Below are positions 2,304-42,062 of a stretch of DNA of 64,000 bases, piece by piece. Under the pieces are notes generated by a model that was given only the letters and a program-made list of their open reading frames with translations, was not told the DNA's origin and made no database searches. The position numbers were made by a program, and so were the translations under genes. Position 1 is the stretch's first letter; each line of letters opens with the position of its first letter. Origin of the DNA: an uncultured delta proteobacterium (GTDB lineage: Bacteria > Desulfobacterota > Binatia > Binatales > Binataceae); contig CAVQEQ010000001.1 in NCBI GenBank assembly GCA_963711565.1, positions 704,001 to 768,000 on the forward strand, in the 5' to 3' direction.

Positions 2304-2318
2304 GCAGAAAATGTGCCG
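2304..2318 (-). promoter_or_regulatory. sigma54 promoter for the poly-HAMP gene
   Basis: CGGCACATTTTCTGC, GG-N10-GC. Confidence 0.65.
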
Positions 2319-2520
2319 CTGGGGGAGCGCGACTGAACAAACCGCTTTGAAGCTGATAAATGCTCTAGAATTTACGCGCTCGACGGATCATTTTGATCGT
2401 CGGCAAGACTCGAAATTCCGAGGATCGTGAAAATTCTTCGGATAGATTTTTCACGGTTCATACCCCGCCTTAGTCTGCCGTCGGTAAAATCCGCAATATT
2501 CGTTCGGCCATCTCTAATGT

Positions 2521-2535
2521 CGGCCCACAGTTTGC
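2521..2535 (+). promoter_or_regulatory. sigma54 promoter for the M23 peptidase
   Basis: CGGCCCACAGTTTGC. Confidence 0.6.
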
Positions 2536-2545
2536 TATTTTCGGT

Positions 2546-3223
2546 GTGTTAGGTCGTATCTGGGTCTGCGCACTGTCTGTAGGTCTCTCGGCAGCAACCG
2601 GGACTTCGCCGCTGAATATCGGAGCACCGCTCGACACTTTGAAGCCGGCGGAACTGCACGATTCTTTCAACGAGGTTCACAACGGGCATCGTCACGAAGC
2701 GATCGACATAATGAGACCGCGCGGCACGCCAGTCCTCGCGGTCACTGATGGCGTCATTCGGAAGCTCTTCGTCAGCGTCCCGGGCGGCCTCACAATTTAC
2801 GAGTTCGATCGGACGGGAACCTACTGCTACTACTACGCGCATCTGGACCGCTATGCAGCGGGACTTCGCGAAGAGATGCCGGTCGCGCGTGGTGACGTGA
2901 TCGGATACGTGGGCACGACCGGGAACGCGGCGCCGGATGCACCTCAGCTCCACTTCGCGATCACCAGGCTTGGTCCCGACAAAAGTTGGTGGAGGGGCGA
3001 GCCGATCGATCCTTATCCAATTCTGATGCGCGTCGTGAACGGCAAGGACACCGACGCAGCTCTTCAAGACCGCGGATGTCCATACGGCTTCAAGACTTTT
3101 TCGAGAGCCGCCAGCGTTGCCCGATTTGCGGCGAGATGCCGCTCGAGCATCGTGCGCGTGGGGGGAGGAAGGTCCTTGCATAGAGCTTTGTCATACTCGT
3201 CGATAACGTCGAGGGCATCCTGA
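2546..3223 (+). CDS. M23 family metallopeptidase, secreted
   Basis: HEAID, YYYAHL and QLHF motifs; signal-peptide-like N-terminus; 3' end overlaps the opposite gene. Confidence 0.85.
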   Translation: MLGRIWVCALSVGLSAATGTSPLNIGAPLDTLKPAELHDSFNEVHNGHRHEAIDIMRPRGTPVLAVTDGVIRKLFVSVPGGLTIYEFDRTGTYCYYYAHLDRYAAGLREEMPVARGDVIGYVGTTGNAAPDAPQLHFAITRLGPDKSWWRGEPIDPYPILMRVVNGKDTDAALQDRGCPYGFKTFSRAASVARFAARCRSSIVRVGGGRSLHRALSYSSITSRAS

Positions 3224-3519
3224 CGACACCATTCGACGACGCCGGTGTCGCCCTTGCTCATGACCACGCTAAGGTCCATTGCGGCCCGATCGATGAATCC
3301 GCCGACGCTGCCCGATTCTCCCCCCGGCTGCTCGCTCTCGCCGCCCAACCGCTTGCGCTCGAGATTCAATTCATCCGCATCGCGCCGGCGCGCCGCTTCC
3401 TGTTGTTCGAAAAACTGCACGAGCTTTTCCTTGCCGACATCGGCCGCCGCCCGGCGATAACGTTCGGCGCTGTCCACGCAAATCTTGACGAGGTTATCGA
3501 GGAGTTTAAGATTTTTCAT
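3064..3519 (-). CDS. PA2169/DUF2383-like four-helix-bundle (ferritin-like) stress protein
   Basis: LDNLVKICVDSAERYRRAA...GESGSVGGFIDRA...DEYDKAL pattern. Confidence 0.75.
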   Translation of the reverse strand: MKNLKLLDNLVKICVDSAERYRRAAADVGKEKLVQFFEQQEAARRRDADELNLERKRLGGESEQPGGESGSVGGFIDRAAMDLSVVMSKGDTGVVEWCRQDALDVIDEYDKALCKDLPPPTRTMLERHLAANRATLAALEKVLKPYGHPRS

Positions 3520-3568
3520 GGCGCGAGCCTCCTTGTTGAGCATGTGACGCGTCGGCGATATTCAAGTC

Positions 3569-3607: not shown

Positions 3608-3622
3608 TGGCCGCGGACTTGC
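3608..3622 (+). promoter_or_regulatory. sigma54 promoter for the metallothionein
   Basis: TGGCCGCGGACTTGC. Confidence 0.7.
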
Positions 3623-3670
3623 AGCTAACTCACCAAATCACGTCCCTTTGAATTGCATGAGGTGAGAGTC

Positions 3671-3832
3671 ATGAAATGCCTGCACGATGCTTGTTCCTGC
3701 CAAGTCAACGCGGGGCAGCAATACTGTTCGAATGAGTGCCAATCCAACGAACGCGACGAGGGCGGAACGGACTGCCACTGCGGCCACAAGGATTGTCGTG
3801 CCTCACAGTCTTCGCATCGCGACAGCACCTAG
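3671..3832 (+). CDS. Bacterial metallothionein-like protein (53 aa)
   Basis: Missing from the ORF track. MKCLHDACSCQVNAGQQYCSNECQSNERDEGGTDCHCGHKDCRASQSSHRDST; 8 Cys, 4 His, YCSxxC motif; GAGGTG RBS. Confidence 0.85.
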   Translation: MKCLHDACSCQVNAGQQYCSNECQSNERDEGGTDCHCGHKDCRASQSSHRDST

Positions 3833-3905
3833 TAGAGCTGTGTAATTCTTACTTAGATCCTCGGCAGCTACTGCTGGAAGTCCGGCAGTTCCGCCTGCCC
3901 GGTGT

Positions 3906-3920
3906 TGGCACGTGCAATGC
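3906..3920 (+). promoter_or_regulatory. sigma54 promoter
   Basis: TGGCACGTGCAATGC upstream of the lipoprotein at 3968. Confidence 0.75.
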
Positions 3921-3967
3921 TCAATCCTTGCCCTGCCTGCCAACACCGACGGAGGCTCGGACCTGAT

Positions 3968-4321
3968 ATGGAATACTTACAAATGATCCTGGTACTCGGC
4001 ACGCTATTTTTGTTTGCGATCGTCGGTTGTCAGACGCCGGTTCAGCCGATCGTGAGCCACAAACTGGTAGTGACGGGAAATCAGCACGCGGTTCCTTTGT
4101 ATCCCGATGAACAGACTTACTTGCATACTTCGCGTGAAAAACAGGAAGGCGGAGTCGTGGGCGTTGTCGGTGACGTGAAGCAAAACCTTACCGCGAAGCA
4201 AATCGACGACCAAACACCGGTTGAAGTCGTGACCAGCGATGACAACGGCGCGGTGATCACGGTGACCGACGGACCGATGAAAGGGGCGACGGGATTCGTC
4301 GCGAAACAGAACGTCAACTAA
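3968..4321 (+). CDS. Hypothetical lipoprotein
   Basis: Hydrophobic signal with lipobox IVGC; GGAGG upstream. Confidence 0.75.
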   Translation: MEYLQMILVLGTLFLFAIVGCQTPVQPIVSHKLVVTGNQHAVPLYPDEQTYLHTSREKQEGGVVGVVGDVKQNLTAKQIDDQTPVEVVTSDDNGAVITVTDGPMKGATGFVAKQNVN

Positions 4322-4406
4322 GGCAGCGAGCGCGACCCTGAAAGATTTACCCGGACTGCAAGCTGATTTTGTGCGCCTGGCTATGGGGAAATTCCTAGAT
4401 AGCATC

Positions 4407-4421
4407 TGGCCGGCTTCTTGC
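4407..4421 (+). promoter_or_regulatory. sigma54 promoter
   Basis: TGGCCGGCTTCTTGC upstream of 4460. Confidence 0.7.
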
Positions 4422-4459
4422 TGTTGTAAGGGCAAGTTCCCGATGGAGGGTTCAATCAC

Positions 4460-4699
4460 ATGCGTTTCATCAGTCGTATCGTAATATTCCCAGCAGCCGT
4501 AGTCGCGTGCGGGATCGCCACCGGATGTTTCTCTTACCACAAAACCGTGGATGAGACTCCGGCCCCCGTAGTTGAAACCGCTCCAGAGACCACGGTGGTC
4601 CCGGTACCCGCGACCTCGAGCTCGACTACAACCACAACGAGCGACAGCAACGGAGTAGTGGAGCGGCAAAAGACTTCGACTTACACCGCACCATACTAG
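4460..4699 (+). CDS. Small Thr-rich lipoprotein
   Basis: Lipobox ATGC; Thr/Pro/Val low-complexity body; GGAGG RBS. Confidence 0.75.
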   Translation: MRFISRIVIFPAAVVACGIATGCFSYHKTVDETPAPVVETAPETTVVPVPATSSSTTTTTSDSNGVVERQKTSTYTAPY

Positions 4700-4791
4700 A
4701 ATCAGCGACATGGATTTCAGCGAGGCGCGTGTGAGTTGTAAGGCTCACGCGCGCAATCGCTGCGATCCGGTGAATTAGAGAGCAATTCGTC

Positions 4792-5049
4792 ATGAAACAA
4801 CCTTTCATTGCAGCTATAGGTCTCAGCGCGATCCTTTGCGCATGCGTGACGCTTGAGTCCTGCGCCGATACAAGCAGTCAGACCACTTACACCACCACCG
4901 CTCCGGGCGAACCGCCGGCGGAAACCACCACCACAACGACGACCACCGAACAGCCTGACAGCGTCGTTGGATCCACAGCGAACGCGGCCGGAACGATAAT
5001 CGCGGCGCCATTCCGGATTGTCGGCGATGCTCTAGGCGTCATCTTCTAG
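4792..5049 (+). CDS. Small Thr-rich lipoprotein
   Basis: Lipobox-like LESC; poly-Thr tract; C-terminal IIAAPFRIVG helix. Confidence 0.7.
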   Translation: MKQPFIAAIGLSAILCACVTLESCADTSSQTTYTTTAPGEPPAETTTTTTTTEQPDSVVGSTANAAGTIIAAPFRIVGDALGVIF

Positions 5050-6412: not shown

Positions 6413-7336
6413 ATGCAGGCATCTGACATAGCGCATTTCTTCAGCCGCGTAGGTTATAGGGTGATCGCGACTGAGAGCTGTTACTGGTACAATCCGCAAC
6501 CTTTCCAGTTTAAGAGCCTGCCGGTGCATCGATTCGTCGCTCCTTCCGCGGTCGAGCTCGCGCAAGTCATGATCCAGGGCCCTGCGTTTGCGCTGCGTTA
6601 TCCGACAACACCGGATAACACCGGTCCGCGAGGCGGAATGTACGTTTGTTCCAACCGCCACTACGCCATCGACGCGCTGTCGTCGCAGAACGCTCGCAGC
6701 AAGACTCGCAGAGGGTTGGCGCGCTGTCATATCGAACAAATTGAATTTCCGTACCTGGCACGGCATGGCTATTCCTTGACTGCGGAAACCACTTTGCGCC
6801 AGATGGGCAGAATGCCGAGCACCACCGAGGCGGAGTGGCAAAGGTTCTGCGACAACGCGACGCGCTCGAAGGATTTCGAGGCCTGGGGCGCTTTCGTCGA
6901 GGATCGATTGGCAACTTTCATTGTCGGGATGCTGGTCGAGGACTGTTATTACATACACTTACAGAAGAGTGCTTCCGATTTACTTAAGTACTATCCCAAC
7001 AATGCTTTGCTGTTCACCGTGATTAAGACCAAGATGGCGTGTCCTCAAGTCGCCTACATCTCGCACGGCCCGAAAGCACTCGCGGTAGGAAAAGGTCTGC
7101 ACTACTTCAAAACCAGCATGGGTTTTGAGCTGCAGCCTTTCACGGATCACGTGGTCTTCAATCCATTGGTGAAGCCTCTCCTGATGTGGAAGGGCGACAC
7201 GGTGGTCAAGAAGCTTATGGAGCGCTACCCGGATAACCTTTTCTGGCAGAGGGCGTCACGAGCACTGCGCGTCGCCAGAGGCGAAGAGCCGCGCGGCGAG
7301 GAGATTGCAGTCAAAATGAGCGAGTCGTCAGAGTGA
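6413..7336 (+). CDS. GNAT/FemAB-like acyltransferase-fold protein
   Basis: ARSKTRRGL, YYPNNALLF and GLHYFKTSMGF motifs. Confidence 0.65.
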   Translation: MQASDIAHFFSRVGYRVIATESCYWYNPQPFQFKSLPVHRFVAPSAVELAQVMIQGPAFALRYPTTPDNTGPRGGMYVCSNRHYAIDALSSQNARSKTRRGLARCHIEQIEFPYLARHGYSLTAETTLRQMGRMPSTTEAEWQRFCDNATRSKDFEAWGAFVEDRLATFIVGMLVEDCYYIHLQKSASDLLKYYPNNALLFTVIKTKMACPQVAYISHGPKALAVGKGLHYFKTSMGFELQPFTDHVVFNPLVKPLLMWKGDTVVKKLMERYPDNLFWQRASRALRVARGEEPRGEEIAVKMSESSE

Positions 7337-8653
7337 CGTATTGTAGTAGTGCACTGCCTGGGCCATCCCGCCGGCGAGTCTGCTGCGAAGGTAGTGCATG
7401 AAGTCTGAAGTGAATACGTACTTCGTGCGCAGGTAGACGCCGCCGTTGTTCATCGAGAAGACTATGCGGTGTAGCTTCCAATTGCGAAAATTTCTGTGAA
7501 GTTGGAATCGAGCGGAAACTCCCAAAGTCTGGATCCCGAAAGGGAACTGGAACCCAAACCATAGCGGTTGAGAATTGATTGACAGGTCCGGAGTCGTCGA
7601 GCGAGGCAGCTCCTCGATAGTGCCGTTTGCCAGCGAAAACACTATGGTCTTGTCCAGATCGGGAATGTTGATCGTAACTTGACGCAATAGCATCAACAAG
7701 GCTCGGGAATAGCGCTCGCGTATCTGCTCCGCCATAGCCACATACGCATCGGAGATCTCGTTGAGCGGCCTTGTCTCGATCGGATCGTAGGGTAGCGCGT
7801 CCCAAGCGGTCAGTGCTTCGTACCGCCGCAATGCCTGGGAAGAGTCATGTCGCGAGCCGACTTCGTAACTGTCACCGGGAAAGAGAACCGCCGCGTTCAG
7901 ATTTCGCTCGATGAGGTAGTTATAGGCGTCCTTCGCGGTATTGGCGAATCGATTGACGTACTTGTTGTCCTCACTCAAGAAGTAGATGAAGCTGGCGAAC
8001 GGGATCGTGACCTTTGCATCGAGAGCGCAATGCACCTCCGACATATTATGCAGAATCTGTTTCGCGCGCTCGGAGAGAAAGCGCTCAGGAGGATCGAAGC
8101 CGGCGTAACCAGCTAGTGAGAATTGGTTCAAAAGTACGTCGACGTGTCGCAAATCTTTGGCAATGAGCCCGCATTCGGCGGTACTTATGCGGACGTCGTT
8201 GGCATTCAGCACCACCTGTCCGTCGTTCAATACCGCCAGCGCCGAATCCATCAGGCCTGCATGGTAGCAATATACTGTTGTGCCCGCGGCGTCGGATGAA
8301 TCATCAGAGAGTCTAACGATTTTGCGATGGGGCAGAAGGCGAAAACGTTGATAGCCGAGCTTTTTGAAAGCCGAGACCATCTTTTCTGAGTCACGAGTTT
8401 GGAAAAGTATGACGACCCGTTCCTTGAAGGAATCTGGAAATGAACCCAGCGTCGGAAAATGGCAGTGATCCGGATGCTCGTGGGAAATCCAGAGGTAGCC
8501 GATACGATCGAGCAGCGCGGAGTCGAATACGGGCGCTGGGTGTAGAGTCCACGAATTGTTGAAAATTTTCCCTGAGAACCATGGATCCATCAGAATGGAA
8601 GTGTCGGAACACTCGACGACTATGCACGCGTGGCCCACGAAGCGAATGTTCAT
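7328..8653 (-). CDS. MBL-fold metallo-hydrolase (UlaG/CMAH-like)
   Basis: GHAC..., DPWFSG, ISHEHPDHCH, LNAND and IPFASF motifs. Confidence 0.85.
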   Translation of the reverse strand: MNIRFVGHACIVVECSDTSILMDPWFSGKIFNNSWTLHPAPVFDSALLDRIGYLWISHEHPDHCHFPTLGSFPDSFKERVVILFQTRDSEKMVSAFKKLGYQRFRLLPHRKIVRLSDDSSDAAGTTVYCYHAGLMDSALAVLNDGQVVLNANDVRISTAECGLIAKDLRHVDVLLNQFSLAGYAGFDPPERFLSERAKQILHNMSEVHCALDAKVTIPFASFIYFLSEDNKYVNRFANTAKDAYNYLIERNLNAAVLFPGDSYEVGSRHDSSQALRRYEALTAWDALPYDPIETRPLNEISDAYVAMAEQIRERYSRALLMLLRQVTINIPDLDKTIVFSLANGTIEELPRSTTPDLSINSQPLWFGFQFPFGIQTLGVSARFQLHRNFRNWKLHRIVFSMNNGGVYLRTKYVFTSDFMHYLRSRLAGGMAQAVHYYNTSL

Positions 8654-8837
8654 CTGGTAGAGCCCTTCATGACCATAAAGTGCGATTCGCCGAGTACTTT
8701 ACCTAGGTTAGAGGAGGCTCCGGGCGGGCGCGCGGCAACTGGCCTGTCGTCGTGGTGGGGAGAAAACCGGTCAGTGGCGCCCACCGGAGCCCCAAGTCCG
8801 AAATCTTTAGGTATTCGTCATTAAGGGTGTAATCCGT

Positions 8838-8852
8838 GCAGATCGCGTGCCG
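8838..8852 (-). promoter_or_regulatory. sigma54 promoter for the MBL gene
   Basis: CGGCACGCGATCTGC. Confidence 0.65.
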
Positions 8853-9002
8853 AGTTTTTGCGATGTTCTTCCGCACCAGTTCGTGAGTTCCGATCTATTG
8901 GTTCTGTAGTTCGGAAAAATTTTCCTTCCGCACTGGACTGAGAGTTCTTGCGGGATCACGCGTCCGCAGTACTCGCGTTGAACATAAATGCGTTCGCCCA
9001 TG

Positions 9003-9017
9003 TGGCATTCGGGTTGC
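9003..9017 (+). promoter_or_regulatory. sigma54 promoter for the wzy-like operon
   Basis: TGGCATTCGGGTTGC. Confidence 0.75.
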
Positions 9018-9033
9018 TTTCGAGTCCAGCAAC

Positions 9034-10551
9034 ATGTTGCAAAGATTACAATTCTCACCTCAAGCGCACGCTGCGGATCAGCGGCGGTCGAGATTCAGCC
9101 ACGATTCGGGAGCTCGAGGACCGCGCGGACTCCTACGATCCATGCCAAGGCTTGGCTTGATCGCGGCTGGCGTCGCCGGCCTGCTGATCCTTGGGCTACT
9201 GAGTCATCCTGCTGGAGGCACGGTGATTGTCCTGGCGATAGCAGCGGCGGGGATTCTGCCGTGGGCAATCTATCGCACGAGCAGTCACGTTTCCTGGGTG
9301 CCGCTTGTGCTCGTGCTGATCGAAGCGGTGGCTGCAAGTTCTTTCGCTGCCACCTCGGATTACCAATTGGGTGCCCTTGTCCGATATCCACTTGGGTTCC
9401 TATTCATTTCGCCGTTTCTTTCCTCCCTGTGGAAATCGGGGATTCTGGGCAAGGGAGGATTTCGCGACTACGCAATATATCTGATTTGGGCGCTGGTCAG
9501 CGTGTCCTATTCGATCCTGCCGGAGGTCTCAATCGCCAGGGTATTCGCCGCTGCAATCCCATTTTGCGCGTTCTGCGCAATAGCCGTAGAAGTAAGAAGC
9601 GGCGATGATGCGCGGCGCGTGATGGGAGTTCTTCTCACTGGTTGCGGAATTGTTGTCGCAGCCAACTACCTTGCCATGTTGATTCCAGGCAACACGGCCT
9701 GGCAGTTGGATACCGATGCCGGAATGCTGCGCTTCGTCGGATTTCTTACCGAGCCCAATGAGATCGGCAACTTGACGCTGGCCACGCTGGGCGCGGGTTT
9801 CGGCTATTGGCCGCTAGCGAGCGGACGGAAAAAGGTGCTAGTCGCCCTGGCGATGATTGGCGCGTTGGTGCAGGTCCTGATGGCAGACTCGCGCTCGCCG
9901 CTCGTCGGGATCGCAATCGGATGCGCTCTTTACATGCTGTTTAAGTATCGAGCCAAAGGCGCGATCGGCATTGCCGTCCTGTATGTAATCTTCTACATGT
10001 CGACCTTCGCGATTCCCTCGATCCACGCTTACATGGATCGGGGCGACGTCGCGAGCTTTACGGGACGCCAGGTCGCATGGGATTTTGCCGTTCATAGCAT
10101 CAGGCAGAGTCCGCTTTTGGGCTATGGCTACGAGGTCGAGGGTCAAATCCTTAAGAATCCGTATTTTCCGGGTTGGGATGAGGTCTGGAACCTGGGCTAC
10201 CAGACATCTCTGCACGACGGTTATGTGTCCCGCGCTATAGGTCTCGGCGTGCCGGCGTTGCTGTTTTGGTTGTTCCTTACGCTGCGACCGGCGATCAGTT
10301 GTCTTTTCTCCAAGCGCGACCCGTGGCGGTTAAGATCGATCGTGCCACTCGCACTGTTGCCCGTACTGATCTTGAATTTCACGGAATCGATTTCAGACTT
10401 CCGCTCCTTCGCCGGCCTTCTGATGGCATTGTCATGGACGATTCTCGAGCGCGAAAGACTCTTCGCCAAGGCAGAAGCCGCGCTACGAGTGAAATCAGTG
10501 GAGGCGGAAAAGACTCCCTTAGTGCGAGCCTTGCAGGCAGGTACCGTATGA
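9034..10551 (+). CDS. O-antigen ligase / Wzy-type polymerase family membrane protein
   Basis: Many TM helices; EPN, SRS, FTGR..W, PLLGYGY and LHDGY motifs; start codon uncertain. Confidence 0.85.
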   Translation: MLQRLQFSPQAHAADQRRSRFSHDSGARGPRGLLRSMPRLGLIAAGVAGLLILGLLSHPAGGTVIVLAIAAAGILPWAIYRTSSHVSWVPLVLVLIEAVAASSFAATSDYQLGALVRYPLGFLFISPFLSSLWKSGILGKGGFRDYAIYLIWALVSVSYSILPEVSIARVFAAAIPFCAFCAIAVEVRSGDDARRVMGVLLTGCGIVVAANYLAMLIPGNTAWQLDTDAGMLRFVGFLTEPNEIGNLTLATLGAGFGYWPLASGRKKVLVALAMIGALVQVLMADSRSPLVGIAIGCALYMLFKYRAKGAIGIAVLYVIFYMSTFAIPSIHAYMDRGDVASFTGRQVAWDFAVHSIRQSPLLGYGYEVEGQILKNPYFPGWDEVWNLGYQTSLHDGYVSRAIGLGVPALLFWLFLTLRPAISCLFSKRDPWRLRSIVPLALLPVLILNFTESISDFRSFAGLLMALSWTILERERLFAKAEAALRVKSVEAEKTPLVRALQAGTV

Positions 10552-32985: not shown

Positions 32986-33147
32986 TCAAAGGATTGCTCT
33001 TCCGGCAATCAGCGACACCACAAACAACACCAGGAATACGAAGAACAGAACCCGCGCAAACTCCGTGGCTGTTCCTGCGATGCCGCCGAATCCTAACGCC
33101 GCGGCAATCACAGCTATCACGAGAAAAACGAGTGCGTAGTATAGCAT
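32986..33147 (-). CDS. DUF1328 (UPF0391/YtjA) small membrane protein
   Basis: Missing from the ORF track. [53 protein letters not shown]; GGAGG RBS. Confidence 0.9.
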
Positions 33148-33184
33148 TACTCAATGTCCTCCAAGGTTGATGCTGAGTTATTCA

Positions 33185-33199
33185 GCAACGACTATGCCA
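33185..33199 (-). promoter_or_regulatory. sigma54 promoter for the DUF1328 gene
   Basis: TGGCATAGTCGTTGC. Confidence 0.8.
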
Positions 33200-33246
33200 C
33201 TGCTAACGCTCCTGAATATGACAGAGCAGGCTACTCCGCAGACGAA

Positions 33247-33609: not shown

Positions 33610-33916
33610 CGACTTTGGCTTCATTCGAAAGCACCAGGGCGGCGCCCAACAGCAACAGCGCTATCATTGCGGCCTCACCCGAGTCCGATCCCAACGCAAA
33701 TCCCAAAGCGCCGGCGACGCACGCCGTAGTGACAGGACGCTTGCGGATTCCGCGGTCCGGGCGGAGCCGAGCGACACCCTCTTCGACGCGGTCGCCAACC
33801 TGATGCATCGCGTCGCGGAGATCCTCCTGGACGCGATCGCCGACCTGATGCAACGCGTCGCGGAGATCCTTGGTGGCGTCTTCCAGTTCATCTTTTGTTT
33901 CGGGGGTGTCTGCCAT
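33581..33916 (-). CDS. Small tail-anchored stress protein with a 15-aa tandem repeat
   Basis: DLRDA(L/M)HQVGDRV(Q/E)E twice; IRKRP....VAGALGF tail. Confidence 0.65.
   Translation of the reverse strand: MADTPETKDELEDATKDLRDALHQVGDRVQEDLRDAMHQVGDRVEEGVARLRPDRGIRKRPVTTACVAGALGFALGSDSGEAAMIALLLLGAALVLSNEAKVDEHDQVERV
33785..33870. repeat. 45-bp in-frame direct repeat (2 copies)
   Basis: gacgcg.tcgcc.acctgatgca..gcgtcgcggagatcct occurs twice. Confidence 0.8.
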
Positions 33917-34121
33917 TTTTGCCTTTCTTCGAGGTCAGTACCGATGTCAGTCGGTCCCCCAACACGCCCTCGAGCACCATGAGAATGATTTGAAACGATG
34001 TGCGGTTGCTGAGTCCTCCGCCAATAGCGAAGCCGCCGAGCACGGCGAGCGCCAGCGACCGCTCGGGATACTTGGAAATCTTCTCACGCAAGTCGGCGAG
34101 GTCAGACTGTTGCTGCGGCAT
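33888..34121 (-). CDS. Small membrane protein (YqjD/ElaB-like tail)
   Basis: I.KYP.RSLALA.LGGF.IG. Confidence 0.6.
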   Translation of the reverse strand: MPQQQSDLADLREKISKYPERSLALAVLGGFAIGGGLSNRTSFQIILMVLEGVLGDRLTSVLTSKKGKNGRHPRNKR

Positions 34122-34126
34122 GATCG

Positions 34127-34336
34127 TTAGCGCCGGGTCACGTGATTGAGGATCCGCGCGGCGATGTAGCCAACCGTGAAGGCGCTGGCAATGGCAATCA
34201 GCGGCTCATCGCGAACGAAGTCCATCAGGGCCGAGTTAACCGACGAAATGTATTCCGTTCCCATCTCGGCAAAATCACTTATTTTTTCGCGCCCCTCGTC
34301 GATCAGACCGTCAACATCTATTTTCGCGGTGCTCAT
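34127..34336 (-). CDS. YqjD/ElaB (DUF883)-like tail-anchored protein
   Basis: DFVRDEPLIAIASAFTVGY. Confidence 0.7.
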   Translation of the reverse strand: MSTAKIDVDGLIDEGREKISDFAEMGTEYISSVNSALMDFVRDEPLIAIASAFTVGYIAARILNHVTRR

Positions 34337-34397
34337 TTTGAAGCCCTTCCCTGATCAGCGAGTTACACACTCGACTGAAGTGTCAATGAATATCCAA

Positions 34398-34412
34398 GCA
34401 AGTTGGCTGCCA
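34398..34412 (-). promoter_or_regulatory. sigma54 promoter for the yqjD-like operon
   Basis: TGGCAGCCAACTTGC. Confidence 0.75.
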
Positions 34413-34642: not shown

Positions 34643-34657
34643 TGGCATAAGGATTGC
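34643..34657 (+). promoter_or_regulatory. sigma54 promoter for the SEC-C microprotein
   Basis: TGGCATAAGGATTGC. Confidence 0.8.
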
Positions 34658-34695
34658 TGGTTACCAGTCAATGCATCTGCGCTTGGAGGTTCACT

Positions 34696-34782
34696 ATGGC
34701 GAATAGACCAGACCCGAATTCTCCCTGCCCATGCGGTTCCGGCAAGCTTTTCCGGCACTGCTGCGGAAAAAGCAGCAAATAA
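34696..34782 (+). CDS. Stand-alone SEC-C zinc-binding microprotein (28 aa)
   Basis: Missing from the ORF track. MANRPDPNSPCPCGSGKLFRHCCGKSSK; GGAGG RBS. Confidence 0.8.
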   Translation: MANRPDPNSPCPCGSGKLFRHCCGKSSK

Positions 34783-34902
34783 AACCTTCCCCCCTCCGGC
34801 AGGGTCGGAAGCCGTGGCGTCCTCCCCCCGCTAGCGGCTTTCAGGTCCTGCCGGACCTTCTTTAAGTCTGTTGGATTGTTTGATTGGCCAGGAGCGGAGT
34901 CT

Positions 34903-35109
34903 ATGCCCACCAAGAAATCGAGCGGCAGGAAGTATTCGAAAAAAGCCGGCAAAATGGTTGAGCGCGAAATCCATGCAATGAAGCGCGGAAAGCTCAAATC
35001 CGGCCGCTCCGGCAAGAAGGTCAGGAGCCGCAAGCAGGCGATCGCGATTGGCCTCTCCGAAGCTCGGCGCGCTGGCGCAAAGGTTCCACGCGCGAAGTCG
35101 TCGTCCTAG
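34903..35109 (+). CDS. DUF6496-like small basic protein
   Basis: MKRGKLKSGRSGKKV.SRKQAIAIGLSEARRAG. Confidence 0.85.
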   Translation: MPTKKSSGRKYSKKAGKMVEREIHAMKRGKLKSGRSGKKVRSRKQAIAIGLSEARRAGAKVPRAKSSS

Positions 35110-35276
35110 CAGTTCGCTCCCCACTCGTTCCGCGACGAGTCGGCATATAGTCTCGCGGCTCGCCCGAACCGCGTGCACAGCGGTTTCGCGAACTCAGTAA
35201 GAACTCCCGCCTGAAAAGTGGATGTCCCCTTGCGACGATCAGTGATTCGGAGCGGTTTAATCACTGCTCTGCCGAT

Positions 35277-35291
35277 TGGCGCGCTTCCTGC
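35277..35291 (+). promoter_or_regulatory. sigma54 promoter
   Basis: TGGCGCGCTTCCTGC. Confidence 0.7.
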
Positions 35292-35357
35292 TCATTGAGT
35301 CGTTATCGCTTCATCCTACGACGCGATTTAACGGACACAGACAAGGAGTAGTCGAAG

Positions 35358-35438
35358 ATGCGTTATGCGATAGCCTGGCTTCTTGGAGTTCCTGCCTCGA
35401 TTATTGTGATTTGGTTTGTGCTTGGACATTTGCTTTAG
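35358..35438 (+). CDS. 26-aa single-TM micropeptide
   Basis: MRYAIAWLLGVPASIIVIWFVLGHLL; AAGGAG RBS. Confidence 0.7.
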   Translation: MRYAIAWLLGVPASIIVIWFVLGHLL

Positions 35439-35501
35439 ACAACCGAATCATCAACCAAGGCCCACTTCTTCTCCAATGCACTTAAATACGAGAGGACCGA
35501 C

Positions 35502-35654
35502 ATGAACCTCATACTCTTAATCGTACTAGTTGTTCTCTTACTCGGCGCACTACCCACATGGCCCTATAGCGCTGAATGGGGTTACTATCCCAGCGGCGCG
35601 CTGGGGACTGTTTTAATCATAGTCTTGGTCCTGGCACTGCTGGGACGAGTGTGA
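35502..35654 (+). CDS. DUF3309 family small membrane protein
   Basis: Missing from the ORF track. LLLGALPTWPYSAEWGYYPSG.LG. Confidence 0.9.
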   Translation: MNLILLIVLVVLLLGALPTWPYSAEWGYYPSGALGTVLIIVLVLALLGRV

Positions 35655-35696: not shown

Positions 35697-35930
35697 CTAA
35701 TCTGTTCGGTGGCTCATCGCGATGCCCGCGCCGATTAGCAGGAGACCTAGCGCTATAGCTCCTCCACTAACGATCGGGGGAATAACGTGGGGCTCCTCGG
35801 TCTTTGCTTGCACCTTCAAGTCCCCGAGCCTGACAACGTCTTTGGTTGATTCGGTGTTGAAGTTTGGGGCCGCAAACATAATCAGTCCGATTAGCACGAC
35901 GGCTGCACCCAATATTATGATGCTTTTCAC
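35697..35930 (-). CDS. Small two-TM membrane protein (DUF3185-like)
   Basis: TM-KDVVRLGDL.V.A..E...IPP-TM; GGAGG RBS. Confidence 0.7.
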   Translation of the reverse strand: MKSIIILGAAVVLIGLIMFAAPNFNTESTKDVVRLGDLKVQAKTEEPHVIPPIVSGGAIALGLLLIGAGIAMSHRTD

Positions 35931-36153
35931 GGTAACGTCCTCCACTCTCTTGATTCTGCCTTTGGGCTAATCGAGCAAAGCCTGAGCCATCGGACACATC
36001 ATGGTCGTAATGCACAGTTCTGTGCCGTTTATGGCCTCCATTGCTATCTGTTCATCGCCCCGCCGATGAAGGACTTTCTCGGCCACCCGGCAATCTGAAA
36101 ATACTTCACACACGAGCCGCGAAAATCACCCGAGTTGCTCACTATTCGGCGGT

Positions 36154-36168
36154 GGGTATGGCGATTGC
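36154..36168 (+). promoter_or_regulatory. sigma54 promoter
   Basis: GGGTATGGCGATTGC upstream of the BON gene. Confidence 0.6.
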
Positions 36169-36197
36169 TCTGTTACCTCTGCAGGAGGGACGAGACC

Positions 36198-36491
36198 ATG
36201 AAATTCGCAACAAAAGCGGCTTTATCGACGGCGCTGATAGCCGGCCTCGCAATTGTCGGCCCGGCGCTCTCCTCGAATCGTACGACTTTCAATCAATCAC
36301 CGTCTGCTGCAACAGAAGGTCACATGGTAAGGGCAAGCATCATCAAGGTGCATACCGACCATGGCGTAATTATTCTGCCCGGCACTGCCGACTCGTGGGA
36401 CGCGGTTGAGAACGCGGTGTTCGTCGCCGACAGCATCGCTGATTTTCAGATGGTCAACAACGAAGTTCCCTGGCAGATAGACTATGAATGA
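36198..36491 (+). CDS. BON domain protein
   Basis: Signal peptide; I.V.T.HGV..L.G...S....A...A......V.N. Confidence 0.7.
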   Translation: MKFATKAALSTALIAGLAIVGPALSSNRTTFNQSPSAATEGHMVRASIIKVHTDHGVIILPGTADSWDAVENAVFVADSIADFQMVNNEVPWQIDYE

Positions 36492-36657
36492 CAGCGTAAG
36501 ATTTTTGCTGTTACCTTAGTCCTTCCATTCTTCCCGACAGCGTCGTTTGACCGTCTTCCCTGCGTGGAGAGGCGCCGCCCGAGCTGGGCTCGCGCGCCCA
36601 TTGCTACTCGCGGCGGCGCGGATTAGAAGCAGGTGTTCGGTCCGCGCGGTTACCGAC

Positions 36658-38484
36658 GTGCCAGCAAACCGACTCAGGAAAAGCCTGACCGCTACGATCC
36701 TGGTGCCCAGCATCCTGGTTGGGACGGCGACCGTCGCTCTGCTTTGGGAATTTCACAGTCAGATGTCCGAAACGGGCTGGGTAGAGCATACCGATCGCGT
36801 CGAGCTTCTGGCCGAAACCGCGAAGACTGAATTCCTCTCGGCGCAGGACGCGCTCAGAGGTTTCCTGATTTCTTCGAGTCCTGCCGACCGTGATTCTGTG
36901 CAGGAGCATTGGAACGCGAGCCGACGAATCATCAAGCAACTGGTTGCTCTGGTAGCCGACAATCCCGGCGAGGAAGAGCGCCTGACAAGTCTGAACGACC
37001 TGGAGAATCAATGGCTCGAGGCCGCCAGTGCCGCGGACTCGGCCTCTGCGGATGCCGACAAGCGCGAGCTTGCCCAACGAGCCGCGGCGATCGGTAGCAA
37101 GGCACTGGCTCAGTTCGATACGGTTTCCGGCGCTGAGGAGGAGTTGCGAATTGCCAGAGACTCGCGGCGAGATTTGCAATATCGCGTCGCGCTGTGGGGC
37201 ATCCCAATCGCAGCGTTGATCCTGATCATTGGACTGACGTCAACAGCGTGGAGAGAAATTCGAAGAGCGAGCCACATATTTGCGACGGCGCTGAACGATG
37301 CCGAGCAAGCAAATCAGACGAAAACGAATTTTCTGGCGGTAATCTCCCACGAACTGCGCAACCCCCTCAACTCGATCCTGCTCTGGTGCAACGCGCTGCT
37401 CTCCAGCGGAACACTCGAGGGCAGAATTGAACAGGGCATGAGCGCAATCTTCCGCGCCGCCAAGGCCCAGGCGCAGCTGATCGAGGATCTGTTGGACATC
37501 TCCAGGATCGAGAGTGGTCAGATGCGCTTTAACGTCCAGCCGATCAGTCCCGCCGAGGTCGTGCGGGCGGCCGTTGACAGCATGATTCCCGCGGCTGAAG
37601 CGAAATCGATCGCCGTCCAAACCGTGATCGATCCGCGCGCGAGCATGATCGTTGGCGATTCGCATCGGCTTCAGCAGGCGGTGTGGAATCTGCTCTCGAA
37701 CGCGATCAAGTTCACGCCCAAGGATGGCAAGGTGCAGGTGCGCCTCGAGCGGATCAACTCCCACCTCGAAATTGTGGTCGCCGACAACGGCCAGGGGATC
37801 GACCAGCGCGCGCTCGAAAACGTCTTCGACCGATTCTGGCAGGCCTCAAGAGAGAGCGGCGATCGCGGACTGGGTCTCGGGCTCTCGATCGTCAAGCACA
37901 TCGTGAATCTTCACGGCGGCACCGTCATTGCCCATAGCGACGGTCCGGGAAAGGGAAGTGTTTTTGTGATCCGGCTTCCGGTGCCGGTCACCACGGCCGG
38001 CCTGGAGAGTACCCCGCGGCGCCATCCTACTGTCTCGCCGGTCGCGCAAGGCGCCCGCCTTCAACGGCTCGATGGGATAGCGGTGCTCGCGGTCAACGAC
38101 GATGCGGCGACGCTTCAAGGACTGAGATCCTTGCTCACATCGCTCGGAGCAAGCTGCAAGGAGAGCTGTACAGTTGAGGACGCAATCGCCACCCTGGCTG
38201 AAAAACATCCCGACGTACTCATCTCCGACCTCGGAATGCCGGGCCGCGACGGCTATTCATTGATCAGAGAAATCAGGGAAAAAGAGAAAGCATCGGCGGC
38301 TTCGGCCCATCTTGCGGCTATCGCTCTGACAGCCTACGGCCGCGTCGAAGATAAGGTTGAAATTCTGGCGGCCGGCTTCGATGGCCACGTTGTGAAGCCG
38401 GTCAACCCGGCGGAGCTGGCAGCCGTCATCAAGCGGCTGGTGGAAGCTGGACGCTCGGGTAATTACAAACCAACACCATCATAA
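36658..38484 (+). CDS. CHASE3 hybrid sensor histidine kinase
   Basis: WVEHT...LRGFL (CHASE3), SHELRNPL, NLLSNAIKFT, G-boxes, C-terminal REC. Confidence 0.92.
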   Translation: MPANRLRKSLTATILVPSILVGTATVALLWEFHSQMSETGWVEHTDRVELLAETAKTEFLSAQDALRGFLISSSPADRDSVQEHWNASRRIIKQLVALVADNPGEEERLTSLNDLENQWLEAASAADSASADADKRELAQRAAAIGSKALAQFDTVSGAEEELRIARDSRRDLQYRVALWGIPIAALILIIGLTSTAWREIRRASHIFATALNDAEQANQTKTNFLAVISHELRNPLNSILLWCNALLSSGTLEGRIEQGMSAIFRAAKAQAQLIEDLLDISRIESGQMRFNVQPISPAEVVRAAVDSMIPAAEAKSIAVQTVIDPRASMIVGDSHRLQQAVWNLLSNAIKFTPKDGKVQVRLERINSHLEIVVADNGQGIDQRALENVFDRFWQASRESGDRGLGLGLSIVKHIVNLHGGTVIAHSDGPGKGSVFVIRLPVPVTTAGLESTPRRHPTVSPVAQGARLQRLDGIAVLAVNDDAATLQGLRSLLTSLGASCKESCTVEDAIATLAEKHPDVLISDLGMPGRDGYSLIREIREKEKASAASAHLAAIALTAYGRVEDKVEILAAGFDGHVVKPVNPAELAAVIKRLVEAGRSGNYKPTPS

Positions 38485-39287: not shown

Positions 39288-39516
39288 GTTTCCAATTATA
39301 TAGGAGGTGGATCTTGCCCGATATCTATTTCCGCCGGGAAGACACATACACGAGCGTCGCGCCGTTTGTTCCCTGAGTAACATTTCGTAGAAGGTCGATT
39401 TCGATCGAGCGGCCTGCTCGTGCACGACGGCTTTCTGGCTCAGGTAAACCTTTCCTGCTTACCGATGCGCAGTTCTGACGCGCCTAAAAACACCATTCAC
39501 TACGAGCTATGTCTTC

Positions 39517-39531
39517 TGGCCCAGATTTTGC
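39517..39531 (+). promoter_or_regulatory. sigma54 promoter for the MEDS kinase
   Basis: TGGCCCAGATTTTGC. Confidence 0.7.
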
Positions 39532-39630
39532 TGTTACTTTTCTGCGAAACCTCGATTTGCGGTCCCGAATGTATGAGACGTGCGCTTCACGGTAGCCCGG
39601 TGATCGCTCGCGGTTCGCGTATGGTTGCCG

Positions 39631-41835
39631 ATGAGTGCCCAACATTCTCAGCCCAATGGAATTAGCGCGTCATACGTAGCGCCGACTGCATGGAGCAACG
39701 TCAGCCCGCACTCGCATCTGGTTCAATTTTACGAGAATGACGGCTTCCTCATCGACTCGCTGGCCCGTTGGTTCGGCGACGGTCTGGACGCGGGCGACAC
39801 ATGCATCTTCGTCGGTACCGAGGCTCATCGAATCAGCCTCGAGAAATATCTCAAGGATCGCGGCATCGATCTCGACCTGATGCGCGCGCGGCGGCGCTGC
39901 GTTTGCCTCGATGCGGCCTCGACGCTGGCGACGTTCATGGTCGATGGATGGCCCGACGAGGCGAGGTTCGTTCGCACGCTCCAGGAGATTCTCGCCGGCG
40001 TGTCCAGGCAGGGTGACCGGCGGGTATTCGGCGAGATGGTCGCGCTGCTTTGGAAGGATGGAAATCGCCAGGCGGCAATTCGGCTCGAAGAGATATGGAA
40101 CGCGTTCATGAGGACGCACACGCTTTCTTTGTGCTGCGCGTATCCGATCAACAGCTTCGGCACCGACGCCGACGCATCGCTGTTCATGAAAGTCTGCGCG
40201 CAGCATACTCCAGTACTGCCGGCTGAGAGTTACAGCGCGTTAGCCACTCCGGCCGAACGGCTGCGCGCGGTGAGTCTGCTGCAACACAAGGCCAGGACGC
40301 TCGAAGCCGAGAAAGCCGGACGCAAGAAAGCGGAGAAGTCGCTCCAGCGCCGTCAAAAGGAGCTCTCGGATTTCTTCGAGAACGCGGTCGAAGGTCTGCA
40401 ACAGCTCGGCCCTCGGGCGAACATATTGTGGGCCAACCCGGCGCAGCTCAAACTGCTCGGATATTTCGCTGATGAATACATCGGCCATTGGCTCGGCGAA
40501 TTTTACGTCGACCGAAACCGCTTCGACGAATTCTGGGCCCGGCTCATGCGTCGCGAGCTCATCTACGACTTCGGGGCCGCGCTGCGATGCAAGAACGGAT
40601 CGATCAAGCACGTTCTCATCCACTCGAGTGGGCTGTGGGAAGACGGGAAGTTCCTCTATACGCGATGCTTCATTCGCGACGTGACCGAACGCGTCGAGCT
40701 GGAAGACCAGCTTAAGGTCAGGCTCACTGAGCTCGCGCAAGCCGATCAACGCAAGAACGAATTCCTCGCGATGCTCGGTCACGAGCTGCGCAATCCCCTG
40801 TCCGCAGTGCTGGACGCGATCGTCACCGCGCAACTCGACCAGACGCGCCGCGACCGCGCCCTCGCCATAGCGCGCCGCCAGACCGATCAACTGGCCGGAC
40901 TGGTGGACGACCTGCTCGACGTCGGACGGATCACGCAAGACAGGATCGCGCTGAAAAAAGAGCCGCTCCTGGTCGGAAGTATCCTCCGGCAGGTGGTCGA
41001 AGAAGCACACAGCCTGGTCGAGCCCGGCCAGCATCAGTTGTCGGTGATCGTGTCGCCGCAAGCGGAGAACGTCTCAATCGAAGCGGACCCGGCGCGGCTG
41101 CGCCAGGTGATCGCCAACCTCATCCACAACGCGGCCAAGTTCACCCCTCCGGGCGGTCGTATCGAAGTGATGGCTGACCGTAACGACGACGAGGCGGTCT
41201 TCCGCGTGCGCGATTCCGGCGTCGGAATCTCGCCGGACCTGCTGCCGCATATTTTCGGCCTGTTTACCCAGGCCGAGCGTTCGCTCGATCGTTCGCGCGG
41301 CGGGCTGGGGATCGGACTGACTCTTGTCAAGCGGCTCGTCGAGATGCACGGTGGTCGCGTTGAGGCAAAAAGCGAGGGCCTCGGAATGGGCAGCGAGTTC
41401 GAAATTCACTTTCCTATCGTGGCGAATGCTCCTCCGCAAGTGCTTGCGACCGTGCGCCGGCCCCAAGTGGCCACGCGTCTGCGCGTGCTAGTGATCGAAG
41501 ACAACCACGACGCGGCTGAAGCGCTGGCGATGCTGCTCGAGTTGTATGGACACGATGCAACCGTGTTTTCAGATGGGCCAAAGGCGATCGAGGCTGTCCG
41601 CACAGCCGCCTTCGACCTGGCCTTCGTGGACATCGGCTTGCCGGGCATGGATGGTTATGAAGTTGCGCGGCGCATCCGCAAGCTCGCGAACGCGAAACCT
41701 ATGCTGCTGGTAGCGCTTACGGGCTATGGGCAGGATTCTGACAAGCAGCGCGCTCTCGCCGCCGGTTTCGACGAGCATCTGACCAAGCCGGTAAAGATCG
41801 AACGGCTGCAGGCCCTTTTGAAGCGCGCTCGATAA
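39631..41835 (+). CDS. MEDS-PAS hybrid histidine kinase
   Basis: H.VQFY...RVFGEMV.LLW...LE..WN...LCCAY (MEDS), PAS, GHELRNPL, REC. Confidence 0.92.
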   Translation: MSAQHSQPNGISASYVAPTAWSNVSPHSHLVQFYENDGFLIDSLARWFGDGLDAGDTCIFVGTEAHRISLEKYLKDRGIDLDLMRARRRCVCLDAASTLATFMVDGWPDEARFVRTLQEILAGVSRQGDRRVFGEMVALLWKDGNRQAAIRLEEIWNAFMRTHTLSLCCAYPINSFGTDADASLFMKVCAQHTPVLPAESYSALATPAERLRAVSLLQHKARTLEAEKAGRKKAEKSLQRRQKELSDFFENAVEGLQQLGPRANILWANPAQLKLLGYFADEYIGHWLGEFYVDRNRFDEFWARLMRRELIYDFGAALRCKNGSIKHVLIHSSGLWEDGKFLYTRCFIRDVTERVELEDQLKVRLTELAQADQRKNEFLAMLGHELRNPLSAVLDAIVTAQLDQTRRDRALAIARRQTDQLAGLVDDLLDVGRITQDRIALKKEPLLVGSILRQVVEEAHSLVEPGQHQLSVIVSPQAENVSIEADPARLRQVIANLIHNAAKFTPPGGRIEVMADRNDDEAVFRVRDSGVGISPDLLPHIFGLFTQAERSLDRSRGGLGIGLTLVKRLVEMHGGRVEAKSEGLGMGSEFEIHFPIVANAPPQVLATVRRPQVATRLRVLVIEDNHDAAEALAMLLELYGHDATVFSDGPKAIEAVRTAAFDLAFVDIGLPGMDGYEVARRIRKLANAKPMLLVALTGYGQDSDKQRALAAGFDEHLTKPVKIERLQALLKRAR

Positions 41836-42047
41836 CTGTCCACGCGAGTCTCGCTGCCAAAGCATCGACATTGCTGGTGCCGCCCCCGAAGCTCGCGGAT
41901 TGAAGTGGATCCGCACGCACCCTGACTGCTTGCAGGAACCTGTCGGCGTCTCCGGGCACTCTTTTGAAATTACTACACGTTCGGAATCGTGAAGAAATTC
42001 CTCGCACAATTGGCGAAAACACCTTGCAGATCAGGGGTTTATGTTCG

Positions 42048-42062
42048 TGGCTCCATACTTGC
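42048..42062 (+). promoter_or_regulatory. sigma54 promoter for csbD-BON
   Basis: TGGCTCCATACTTGC. Confidence 0.75.

Follow-up and report, generated by a model that had tools for sequence, protein, structure and literature searches.

A cluster of -24/-12 promoters with an upstream palindrome in a Binatota genome: a candidate sigma-54-dependent general-stress regulon

Introduction

Which switch controls the general-stress genes of a bacterium in which RpoS, SigB and EcfG-type sigma factors are not detected? The question is raised by a stretch of 64,000 nucleotides (referred to here as the window; C1:704001-768000, on contig CAVQEQ010000001.1) from the 4.84-Mb genome of an uncultured member of the Binataceae (completeness 94.9%), in which many genes of general-stress type lie behind -24/-12 elements, the promoter type of sigma-54. 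The lineage name Binatota is used because a window protein falls in Atlas clusters in which Candidatus Binatota is the most frequent phylum, if on few records. RpoS and SigB control osmY, ytjA, yjbJ, yhbO and yflT, and to our knowledge the general-stress regulator has been characterised in few lineages only. The sigma-54 holoenzyme stays closed at -24/-12 elements until an upstream-bound, ATP-hydrolysing activator opens the promoter. A preliminary description of the window had proposed that this lineage wires its general-stress and desiccation response, a polysaccharide locus and several sensor kinases to sigma-54. The reading reached here, to which a probability of about three in four is given, is that the window is the core of a sigma-54-run general-stress regulon with one NtrC-family activator and with a degenerate paralog of this activator, P0001, as its brake. 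By its content it would be a general-stress regulon, and by its predicted mechanism an NtrC-type sigma-54 regulon.

The -24/-12 promoters

GG-N10-GC is found on the expected strand at all 18 positions listed in the preliminary description, and each motif is correctly oriented, pointing at a gene start 10-205 nucleotides (nt) downstream; gene starts were called from open reading frames (ORFs) and ribosome-binding sites. Two motifs match TGGCAC-N5-TTGC exactly (13654 and 32150), nine have one mismatch, six have two and one (36154) has three. A 19th motif, absent from the original list, lies at 35975-35989(-).

The cluster is real, statistically strong and conserved. The 12,585 non-coding bases of window positions 1-43,600, as defined by purpose-made gene calls that leave genes of fewer than 100 amino acids (aa) unmasked, contain 12 sites that depart from the consensus at no more than one position. 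Dinucleotide shuffles (n = 300) of the same DNA give a mean of 0.59 and a maximum of 3, none as high as 12, and the wrong spacers 3, 4, 6 and 7 give 0 sites each. At two mismatches or fewer, 22 sites stand against a shuffle mean of 4.8 and a maximum of 12. Site density is 0.95 per kb in this island and 0.085 per kb (83 sites in 981 kb) in the remaining genome, where wrong spacers yield 31-41 sites against the 83 with the correct one. Motif density, one of the tests named in the preliminary description, is far above both backgrounds, and its remark that no motif occurs beyond 43.6 kb is borne out by 0 sites in the 4,413 non-coding bases of 43.6-64 kb, a small sample of DNA. Leftward, the cluster extends about 45 kb past the window edge.

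The motifs recur in relatives at the level of genus, family and class, as the preliminary description had asked to have checked. In six same-genus genomes (18 regions of 20 kb), a sigma-54 matrix built from the window's own sites finds 86 sites; shifting the spacer lowers this to 23 and 18. A counterpart ahead of the orthologue is present in at least one of these genomes for 17 of the 18 sites, despite shuffled gene order, and in all six for the ytjA, ElaB-like, csbD and 32150 promoters. The site at 2521, which is 10 nt from its start codon, is the least supported: it has no counterpart ahead of an orthologue in the six genomes, two of these relatives having the gene. The sites at 36154, 8838 and 3569 reach leave-one-out scores of only 6.1-7.4 bits. 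In the family, a score of 11 bits or more is reached by 19 of the 30 best csbD loci (controls 0), and four further loci, all of one genus, carry TGGAAC-N5-TTGC at 8-9 bits. Across the class, the sigma-54 motif stands at 23 of the 29 best-scoring ytjA loci (controls 0, 0 and 2), the ytjA family being present in 63 of 201 class genomes.

An explanation by relic, silent or repressive sites, or by matches that arose by chance in AT-rich DNA between genes, with transcription actually due to sigma-70 or to sigma factors of the extracytoplasmic function (ECF) type, is very improbable. About half of the genome-wide matrix matches at 12 bits are equalled by wrong-spacer controls (127 against 45-75), and the genome encodes thirteen ECF sigma factors, as such an explanation would have it. 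Against it speak the enrichment, strict spacing, uniform orientation and conservation just described, the palindrome at a fixed distance and linked intact activator described below, and the positions of the EcfG-type promoter matches in the window, of which there are four, all away from the sigma-54 promoters.

The upstream palindrome

Alignment of orthologous promoters revealed conserved islands upstream of the -24/-12 motifs. Expectation-maximisation on 46 relatives' promoters, the sole source from which the element was learnt, yielded the palindrome G(T/A)AA-W3-TT(A/T)C (GWAA-W3-TTWC; 11.5 bits), which is new in this analysis. Gapped-word counting on 18 upstream regions had given no usable motif because divergent promoters were counted twice. 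The palindrome occurs at 9 bits or more within 20-150 nt upstream of 14 of the 19 window motifs, where background rates are 2.3% of 1,546 regions and 5.1% of 389 AT-rich regions. These 14 promoters are served by 10 distinct elements, four of them common to divergent pairs, at 44-108 nt from the motif.

A less circular test of the palindrome is its occurrence outside the window, where eight of 71 sigma-54 candidates score 12.9-15.4 bits and the next best 9.4. The eight promoters precede pfpI, ku-ligD, glgE, glgX-treY-treZ, a BON gene, a sugar-transferase/debranching operon and two unknowns; the BON promoter is related to one of the training groups, and the other seven are not. This split suggests that the palindrome singles out stress genes within a wider sigma-54 set. 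In the continuation of the cluster to the left of the window, pfpI, glgE, glgX-treY-treZ and the sugar-transferase operon each have a -24/-12 motif, and on C3 a motif lies 377 nt ahead of ku-ligD.

Outside the island, both motifs stand at top scores ahead of the genes for two proteins that are predicted to be new regulon members, a 118-aa unknown protein (L107:5914-6270) and a 512-aa cytochrome c / di-haem-like protein (L186:5544-7082). A further palindrome in the window (2265-2279; 14.2 bits) lies just past the start predicted for the promoter of the multi-HAMP/GAF kinase, a position at which a bound protein would block transcription, not activate it.

The candidate activator and its kinase

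The genome has one rpoN, the gene whose presence the preliminary description had made a condition of its proposal, and 17 full enhancer-binding-protein domains. The activator of the regulon is likely the product of C1:127587-128954, 600 kb from the window, a 455-aa receiver-AAA+-helix-turn-helix (HTH) protein with GSFTGA and LLLDE. Its gene is followed directly by one for a HAMP-PAS kinase whose N-terminus carries a membrane segment, and beyond this lie BON genes that have both motifs; two tandem palindromes (15.8 bits) are placed about 140-160 nt upstream of the activator gene. Of the 12 other genes in the activator clade (99 by SH-aLRT in a quick tree), 10 are preceded by a palindrome of at least 11 bits; such an element precedes 5 of 21 genes from more distant parts of the family and none of 13 other activators encoded in this genome. 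Over the 34 rows scored (L140 left out), 16 reach at least 11 bits, namely 11 of the 13 in or adjoining the clade and 5 of the 21 in the remainder. In three clade members a complete -24/-12 motif stands about 30 nt ahead of the gene. In four relatives (G006, G009, G012 and G020) the activator orthologue lies amid elaB-like, csbD and ytjA genes, and among the matches listed 6 of 31 genomes have a family member no more than 10 kb from csbD, where 0.35 would be expected.

Strictly spaced motifs that face their genes, rpoN together with an intact enhancer-binding protein, and a conserved upstream element (14 of 19 promoters) are among the features by which a sigma-54 regulon is recognised, and they are found here together.

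The same wider family includes two activators without a receiver, encoded at C4:56358-56858 and C2:41110-41610, one of them adjoining an integrase-like gene; these might be constitutive and carried on mobile DNA.

P0001, a degenerate paralog within the island

P0001 is an atypical NtrC-family protein encoded in the window, 48% identical to the activator's orthologues. NAFAGA replaces GAFTGA, Walker B reads LLLNE, the sensor-I Asn is lost and the receiver is degenerate, while the Fis-type helix is conserved. Among the 17 activators of the genome only the proposed activator and P0001 have the KTLYN helix. The central threonine of GAFTGA is important for sigma-54 contact, as stated in the available part of PMC7057263, and it is replaced in 18 of the 20 P0001-type copies that have an AAA+ domain. 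Of 47 genus genomes, 20 have a match to P0001 (21 loci in all), and in 16 comparisons with this genome the ratio of nonsynonymous to synonymous substitution (dN/dS) is 0.03-0.18 for the HTH, 0.18-0.29 for the AAA+ domain and 0.25-0.41 for the receiver. In G012 the paralog is a 206-aa receiver-HTH form (L297:1477-2097(-)) from which the whole AAA+ domain is missing in frame. In six relatives the 32150 promoter first drives BON and/or YflT-domain genes in an operon BON-YflT-P0001, with P0001 last; this genome lacks the BON and YflT genes at the P0001 locus. G006 keeps motifs, palindromes and activator and has no match to the degenerate paralog.

As the threonine of GAFTGA is lost but the DNA-binding helix is kept, P0001 is proposed to be a regulon-induced competitor for the enhancer, and a role as brake on the regulon is, with some reserve, the favoured one. 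Three other views of the gene were abandoned or softened. P0001 as activator of the regulon was rejected as improbable on motif loss, clade placement and the AAA-less form, and recent decay on dN/dS and the presence in 20 of 47 genus genomes; 32150 as a dedicated autoregulatory promoter of P0001 is a weaker idea now that the relatives' promoter is seen to drive BON/YflT-domain genes first.

The brake has its own difficulties. Two basal P0001-type copies (G015 and G016) retain GAFT/GSFT, and in the 18 degenerate copies, all of which have lost the sensor-I Asn, Walker B is intact (LLLDE/LLIDE) in 15 and altered in 3, so that the label 'ATPase-dead' is not established for them. It is accordingly conceivable, if on balance unlikely, that the sigma-54 sites are real and that P0001 is a sigma-70-type activator, a mixed-ring co-activator or a regulator of other targets. 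GAFTGA-less enhancer-binding proteins often activate sigma-70 promoters (VpsR, TyrR, HupR and PhhR, in the part of PMC6158489 that was available), the AAA+ domain is under purifying selection (dN/dS about 0.2) with Walker B mostly intact, and one helix position differs between the two proteins (SLKT against SAKT). A ring partner is hard to square with the natural AAA-less form, and the location of the P0001 gene in a regulon operon, together with the persistence of the regulon without P0001 in G006, speaks against these alternative roles. A sigma-70 activator like VpsR is the main competitor of the brake for P0001; the sigma-54 claim itself would be unaffected by it.

Sigma factors and the proposed circuit

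The sigma-70 family has fifteen members in this genome, namely RpoD, an RpoH-like factor and 13 proteins of ECF size; no NCBIfam match at 1e-18 was obtained for two of the 13. RpoS is above the TIGR02394 cut-off in 0 of 121 class genomes, a cut-off that the E. coli control passes, and SigB/F/G-type sigma factors are found in 0 of 61 genomes at E 1e-50, where the B. subtilis control passes. NepR has no match in this genome, and the Caulobacter control was detected. No ECF factor lies above the named cut-off of the candidate models, which we take to be EcfG-linked; PhyR was not searched for. The marks of an RpoS, SigB or EcfG-PhyR-NepR regulon were, within these searches, not found in this genome, which answers the check for rpoS and ecfG that had been set in the preliminary description. 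RpoD-like long matches (open frames of about 560-1000 aa) occur two or more at a time in many families of the class, mostly not this family.

The proposed circuit would work as follows. Sigma-54 holoenzyme would wait closed at the -24/-12 sites of the island until the ATP-hydrolysing activator, bound upstream, opens it. The activator would be phosphorylated by the adjoining membrane HAMP-PAS kinase; it is predicted to bind the palindrome at the regulon promoters and may autoregulate through the tandem palindromes in its own upstream region. The output would be envelope and membrane proteins (CsbD, BON/OsmY, YtjA, ElaB-like, DUF3309 and DUF2383), and GlgX, TreY, TreZ and GlgE for trehalose and glycogen, PfpI, Ku-LigD, a Wzy-type polysaccharide and three hybrid kinases. 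In the weakest step, P0001 would be made from a regulon promoter and, unable to engage sigma-54, bind the palindrome, giving negative feedback. With -24/-12 and palindrome promoters and no match to a dedicated stress sigma factor, anti-sigma factor or NepR, control would sit in activator phosphorylation and ATP hydrolysis.

Several observations weigh against this circuit. Thirteen ECF sigma factors and 94.9% completeness leave room for a parallel ECF branch. The relatives are kin, so their statistics are not independent; with the matrix taken from window sites and the palindrome from orthologous promoters, window and same-genus scores are partly circular. The palindrome is below 9 bits at five of the 19 window promoters (3569, 3608, 13654, 34398 and 34643). 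The activator's own -24 element is degenerate in the genus (8.8 bits), some of its orthologues share upstream DNA with a divergent stress gene, where the palindromes are not independent, and among the matches listed no activator-csbD linkage within 10 kb is seen in 25 of 31 genomes, many of them fragmented. Both motifs are absent at three ferritin/Dps-family genes, a catalase-like gene, six other BON genes and the second csbD operon. The glsB gene has a sigma-54 motif without a palindrome, and a cluster at C1:583802-587595 (BON, two glycine-rich membrane peptides and ElaB-like) has palindromes of 9.6 and 11.3 bits without a sigma-54 motif.

Content of the proposed regulon and the nature of the signal

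The genes behind the window motifs include csbD, BON/OsmY-like genes, ytjA, DUF3309, DUF6496, DUF2383/PA2169 and an ElaB-like operon, as well as small lipoprotein-like and Cys-rich proteins, the Wzy-type polysaccharide locus and hybrid kinases. The targets are thus genes of non-specific protection, if incompletely so. The original stress-gene labels hold for CsbD, BON/OsmY and DUF1328, which are above Pfam cut-offs; ElaB/YqjD is weak, the ORF 34127-34336 hitting DUF883_C at E 0.018, under the cut-off. The wider proposal of a stress, polysaccharide and kinase regulon wired to sigma-54, less its desiccation part, stands on motif density, rpoN, conservation and the lack of detected RpoS, SigB, EcfG-type sigma factor or NepR, with the restriction that not every stress gene is covered. 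Elsewhere in the genome otsA was not found, and a DUF892 match is weak and on a ferritin gene.

This restriction lends some weight to a different use of the same promoters and activator, namely a response to one specific cue or a developmental switch (envelope or osmotic change, surface attachment or entry into dormancy) in place of multiple stresses. The cognate kinase is a single membrane sensor, the targets are skewed to envelope proteins, polysaccharide and storage carbohydrate, and the regulon does not take in the Dps/ferritin and catalase-like genes or several of the BON and csbD genes; moreover, PrsK/PrsR offers a like promoter layout for surface proteins and polysaccharide (PMC1569441, from the text available). 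Such a switch is nevertheless rated as quite unlikely. The target set overlaps the EcfG regulon, of which csbD and ku-ligD are named targets in the accessible text of PMC7083833, ytjA switches cleanly between EcfG and sigma-54 motifs by lineage, no dedicated stress sigma factor was found, and the three further hybrid kinases of the island could bring in more signals.

Promoters of ytjA in other lineages

Among the matches listed from named records, 80 ytjA loci were compared (80 of 196 confirmed), of which 57 were read as alphaproteobacterial. GGAAC-N15-18-(C/G)GTT is present at 53 of these 57 and the sigma-54 motif at 0 of 57. As GGAAC-N16-CGTT is the EcfG promoter in the sections of PMC7083833 at hand, the alphaproteobacterial loci are read as EcfG-type. 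In the planctomycete order of G043 (L010, Botrimarina) the sigma-54 motif is found at 20 of the 30 best-scoring loci (controls 0, 0 and 1), the family being present in 44 of 61 genomes of that order. The element upstream of ytjA is there unlike the Binatota palindrome, which was dismissed for planctomycetes at 1 of 20 sites. An enhancer-binding protein gene lies within 1.5 kb of ytjA at 4 of the 30 loci in this order (L249, L253, L260 and L271). The order of G044 (L052, Oligoflexales) was set aside as weak, with the motif at 6 of 15 loci but also at 3 of 15 reverse-strand controls; the sub-cut-off locus L311 was left out.

Tentatively, sigma-54 with a two-component activator may be a fourth, widespread mode of general-stress control beside RpoS, SigB and EcfG, class-wide in Binatota and arrived at independently, by way of different activators and enhancers, in planctomycetes and certain other uncultured lineages; the brake of this genus would then be a decayed activator duplicate that gives an anti-sigma-like shut-off. 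No description of a sigma-54 general-stress regulon in Binatota was found in the open full-text literature, subscription papers being mostly outside the search. In a 2025 survey (PMC12316311), MscS and UspA are reported as sigma-54-enriched in Planctomycetia, and the parts of it available contain no mention of Binatota, CsbD, 'general stress' or five COG numbers that were looked for. Control of a Rhodopirellula thioredoxin by rpoN is suggested, and a general stress cluster noted, in the portion of PMC2754498 at hand.

In Metapseudomonas boanensis (L004:1327-3162), ytjA is divergent from an NtrC-family gene with its kinase, which we take to be AlgB-KinB, and an exact -24/-12 motif 155 nt upstream faces ytjA; PA5482 is presumably ytjA, adjoining algB. 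Pseudomonads keep RpoS, and the arrangement is a possible small-scale precedent in an RpoS-keeping lineage. Its activator shares 36% identity with the activator put forward in this analysis and best matches another paralog of this genome (47%), so it is not an orthologue. AlgB is described as an NtrC-type regulator with GAFTGA, and PA4738 and PA5482 as osmotic-stress genes, with no link drawn between them in the available parts of PMC6932827 and PMC10734507.

Relation to known systems

The regulon resembles that of EcfG in the targets named above. It differs from EcfG, RpoS and SigB control in that no dedicated stress sigma factor, anti-sigma factor or NepR match is found, and -24/-12 elements with a palindrome stand in place of control by sigma release or stability. 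The likeness to PrsK/PrsR lies in one NtrC-family pair, a motif about 63 nt before -24/-12, many dispersed promoters and a link to exopolysaccharide (PMC1569441, as far as its text was available), whereas the targets here are stress proteins, trehalose enzymes and DNA repair. A PrsR/PEP-CTERM system was rejected: the activator is above no named NCBIfam cut-off among those shown and scores 395.5 against a PrsR cut-off of 502.6, and no exosortase was found in the genome. The window export genes match XrtA-system models below cut-off.

With NtrBC, ZraSR and AtoSC the circuit would share a receiver-AAA+-Fis HTH activator governed by a membrane kinase, a palindromic enhancer and autoregulation (here predicted), and the nearest solved relatives are 4l4u, 1ny5, LuxO 5ep0 and ZraR 1ojl; unlike these systems it would serve about 27 promoters of general-stress type, not a single pathway. 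P0001, without the GAFTGA threonine, recalls the atypical enhancer-binding proteins VpsR, NtrX, TyrR, HupR, PhhR and HsfA, and its Walker B D-to-N change is like that of VpsR (PMC6158489, in the part available). Unlike them, it stems from a duplication, at genus level, within the activator family of the regulon itself, lies in a sigma-54 operon and has lost its AAA+ domain in one genome.

The analysis puts forward a concrete, testable circuit for a candidate phylum without detected RpoS, SigB or EcfG, comprising promoters, enhancer, activator-kinase pair and candidate feedback repressor, and small enough for reconstruction in a laboratory strain. From the two-motif signature a stress role is predicted for a dozen small proteins that lack annotation, and the promoter type at ytjA or csbD, readable from sequence, may tell which switch a lineage uses.

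Features of the window

Table 1. Promoter motifs, palindromes and genes of the sigma-54 island, in window positions.
Feature	Coordinates	Strand	Details
Multi-HAMP/GAF hybrid histidine kinase	1..2208	-	1701 aa, 5' part, runs off left window end
-24/-12 motif of multi-HAMP/GAF kinase	2304..2318	-	2 mismatches; G004 counterpart
Two tandem palindromes	2427..2454		12.9 + 9.1 bits; common to divergent 2304 and 2521 motifs
Motif ahead of M23 peptidase ORF	2521..2535	+	ORF 2546-3223; weakest-supported site
DUF2383 / PA2169-family ferritin-like protein	3064..3519	-	motif 3569-3583(-)
Motif and 53-aa Cys-rich protein	3608..3832	+	motif 3608-3622; protein 3671-3832; metallothionein match only E 0.13
Palindrome, motif, 117-aa lipoprotein-like ORF	3840..4321	+	palindrome 3840-3854; motif 3906-3920; ORF 3968-4321
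Palindrome, motif, two Thr-rich small lipoprotein-like ORFs	4338..5049	+	palindrome 4338-4352; motif 4407-4421; ORFs 4460-4699, 4792-5049
Metallo-beta-lactamase-fold ORF and motif	7328..8852	-	ORF 7328-8653; motif 8838-8852
Palindrome	8912..8926		14.9 bits; common to divergent 8838 and 9003 motifs
Motif and Wzy_C/O-antigen-ligase-family gene	9003..10551	+	motif 9003-9017
Palindrome, exact motif, polysaccharide operon	13577..30616	+	palindrome 13577-13591 (8.8 bits); motif 13654-13668
P0001, atypical NtrC-family protein	30627..32057	-	
Exact motif ahead of P0001	32150..32164	-	
Palindrome	32248..32262		11.8 bits; common to divergent 32150 and 32336 motifs
Motif and 133-aa Thr-rich lipoprotein-like protein	32336..32880	+	motif 32336-32350; protein typical of Binatota clusters
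ytjA (DUF1328), motif, palindrome	32986..33263	-	ytjA 32986-33147; motif 33185-33199; palindrome 33249-33263
Four small genes behind one motif	33247..34412	-	motif 34398-34412; ElaB-like 34127-34336; 33888-34121; 33581-33916; holin-X-like 33247-33609
Motif, 28-aa SEC-C peptide, DUF6496	34643..35109	+	motif 34643-34657; peptide 34696-34782; DUF6496 34903-35109
Palindrome, motif, conserved 26-aa peptide, DUF3309	35195..35654	+	palindrome 35195-35209; motif 35277-35291; peptide 35358-35438; DUF3309 35502-35654
19th motif ahead of 77-aa membrane protein	35697..35989	-	motif 35975-35989; protein 35697-35930
Palindrome, motif, short BON protein	36095..38484	+	palindrome 36095-36109; motif 36154-36168; protein 36198-36491
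CHASE3 hybrid kinase		+	after short BON protein; ends 38484; without own motif
Palindrome, motif, MEDS-PAS hybrid kinase	39442..41835	+	palindrome 39442-39456; motif 39517-39531
Palindromes, motif, csbD	41964..43537	+	palindromes 41964-41978 + 41989-42003; motif 42048-42062; csbD 42120-42317
BON/OsmY-like gene and receiver-like ORF		+	after csbD; 42378-42794 and 42905-43537

The polysaccharide operon encodes Wza-type export, a chain-length protein, an ExeA-like ATPase, a priming transferase, a flippase and glycosyltransferases. The M23 ORF and the convergent DUF2383 gene overlap by 160 nt (2546-3519); the G004 match to the M23 protein stops near residue 169, and the tail in this genome may be read-through. 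Each of the two short peptides is the first gene behind a conserved motif: the 26-aa hydrophobic peptide is 62-96% identical in four relatives and the 28-aa SEC-C peptide 59-71% identical in five, and both have likely been overlooked by gene callers.

Contigs from two metatranscriptome sets match parts of 31.8-36.7 and 39.7-43.6 kb, for the most part with an identity of at least 99%; this attests to presence in RNA libraries only, as such contigs give no ends, strand or level. The lack of real contig cover at 37.1-39.1 and 43.8-50.4 kb is uninformative, the runs having been picked with 32.0-36.6 kb. Beyond the island, a stretch of low guanine-plus-cytosine content (52%) at 52000-55400 carries an IS1595-family transposase (54444-55373) amid monooxygenase and TauD genes.

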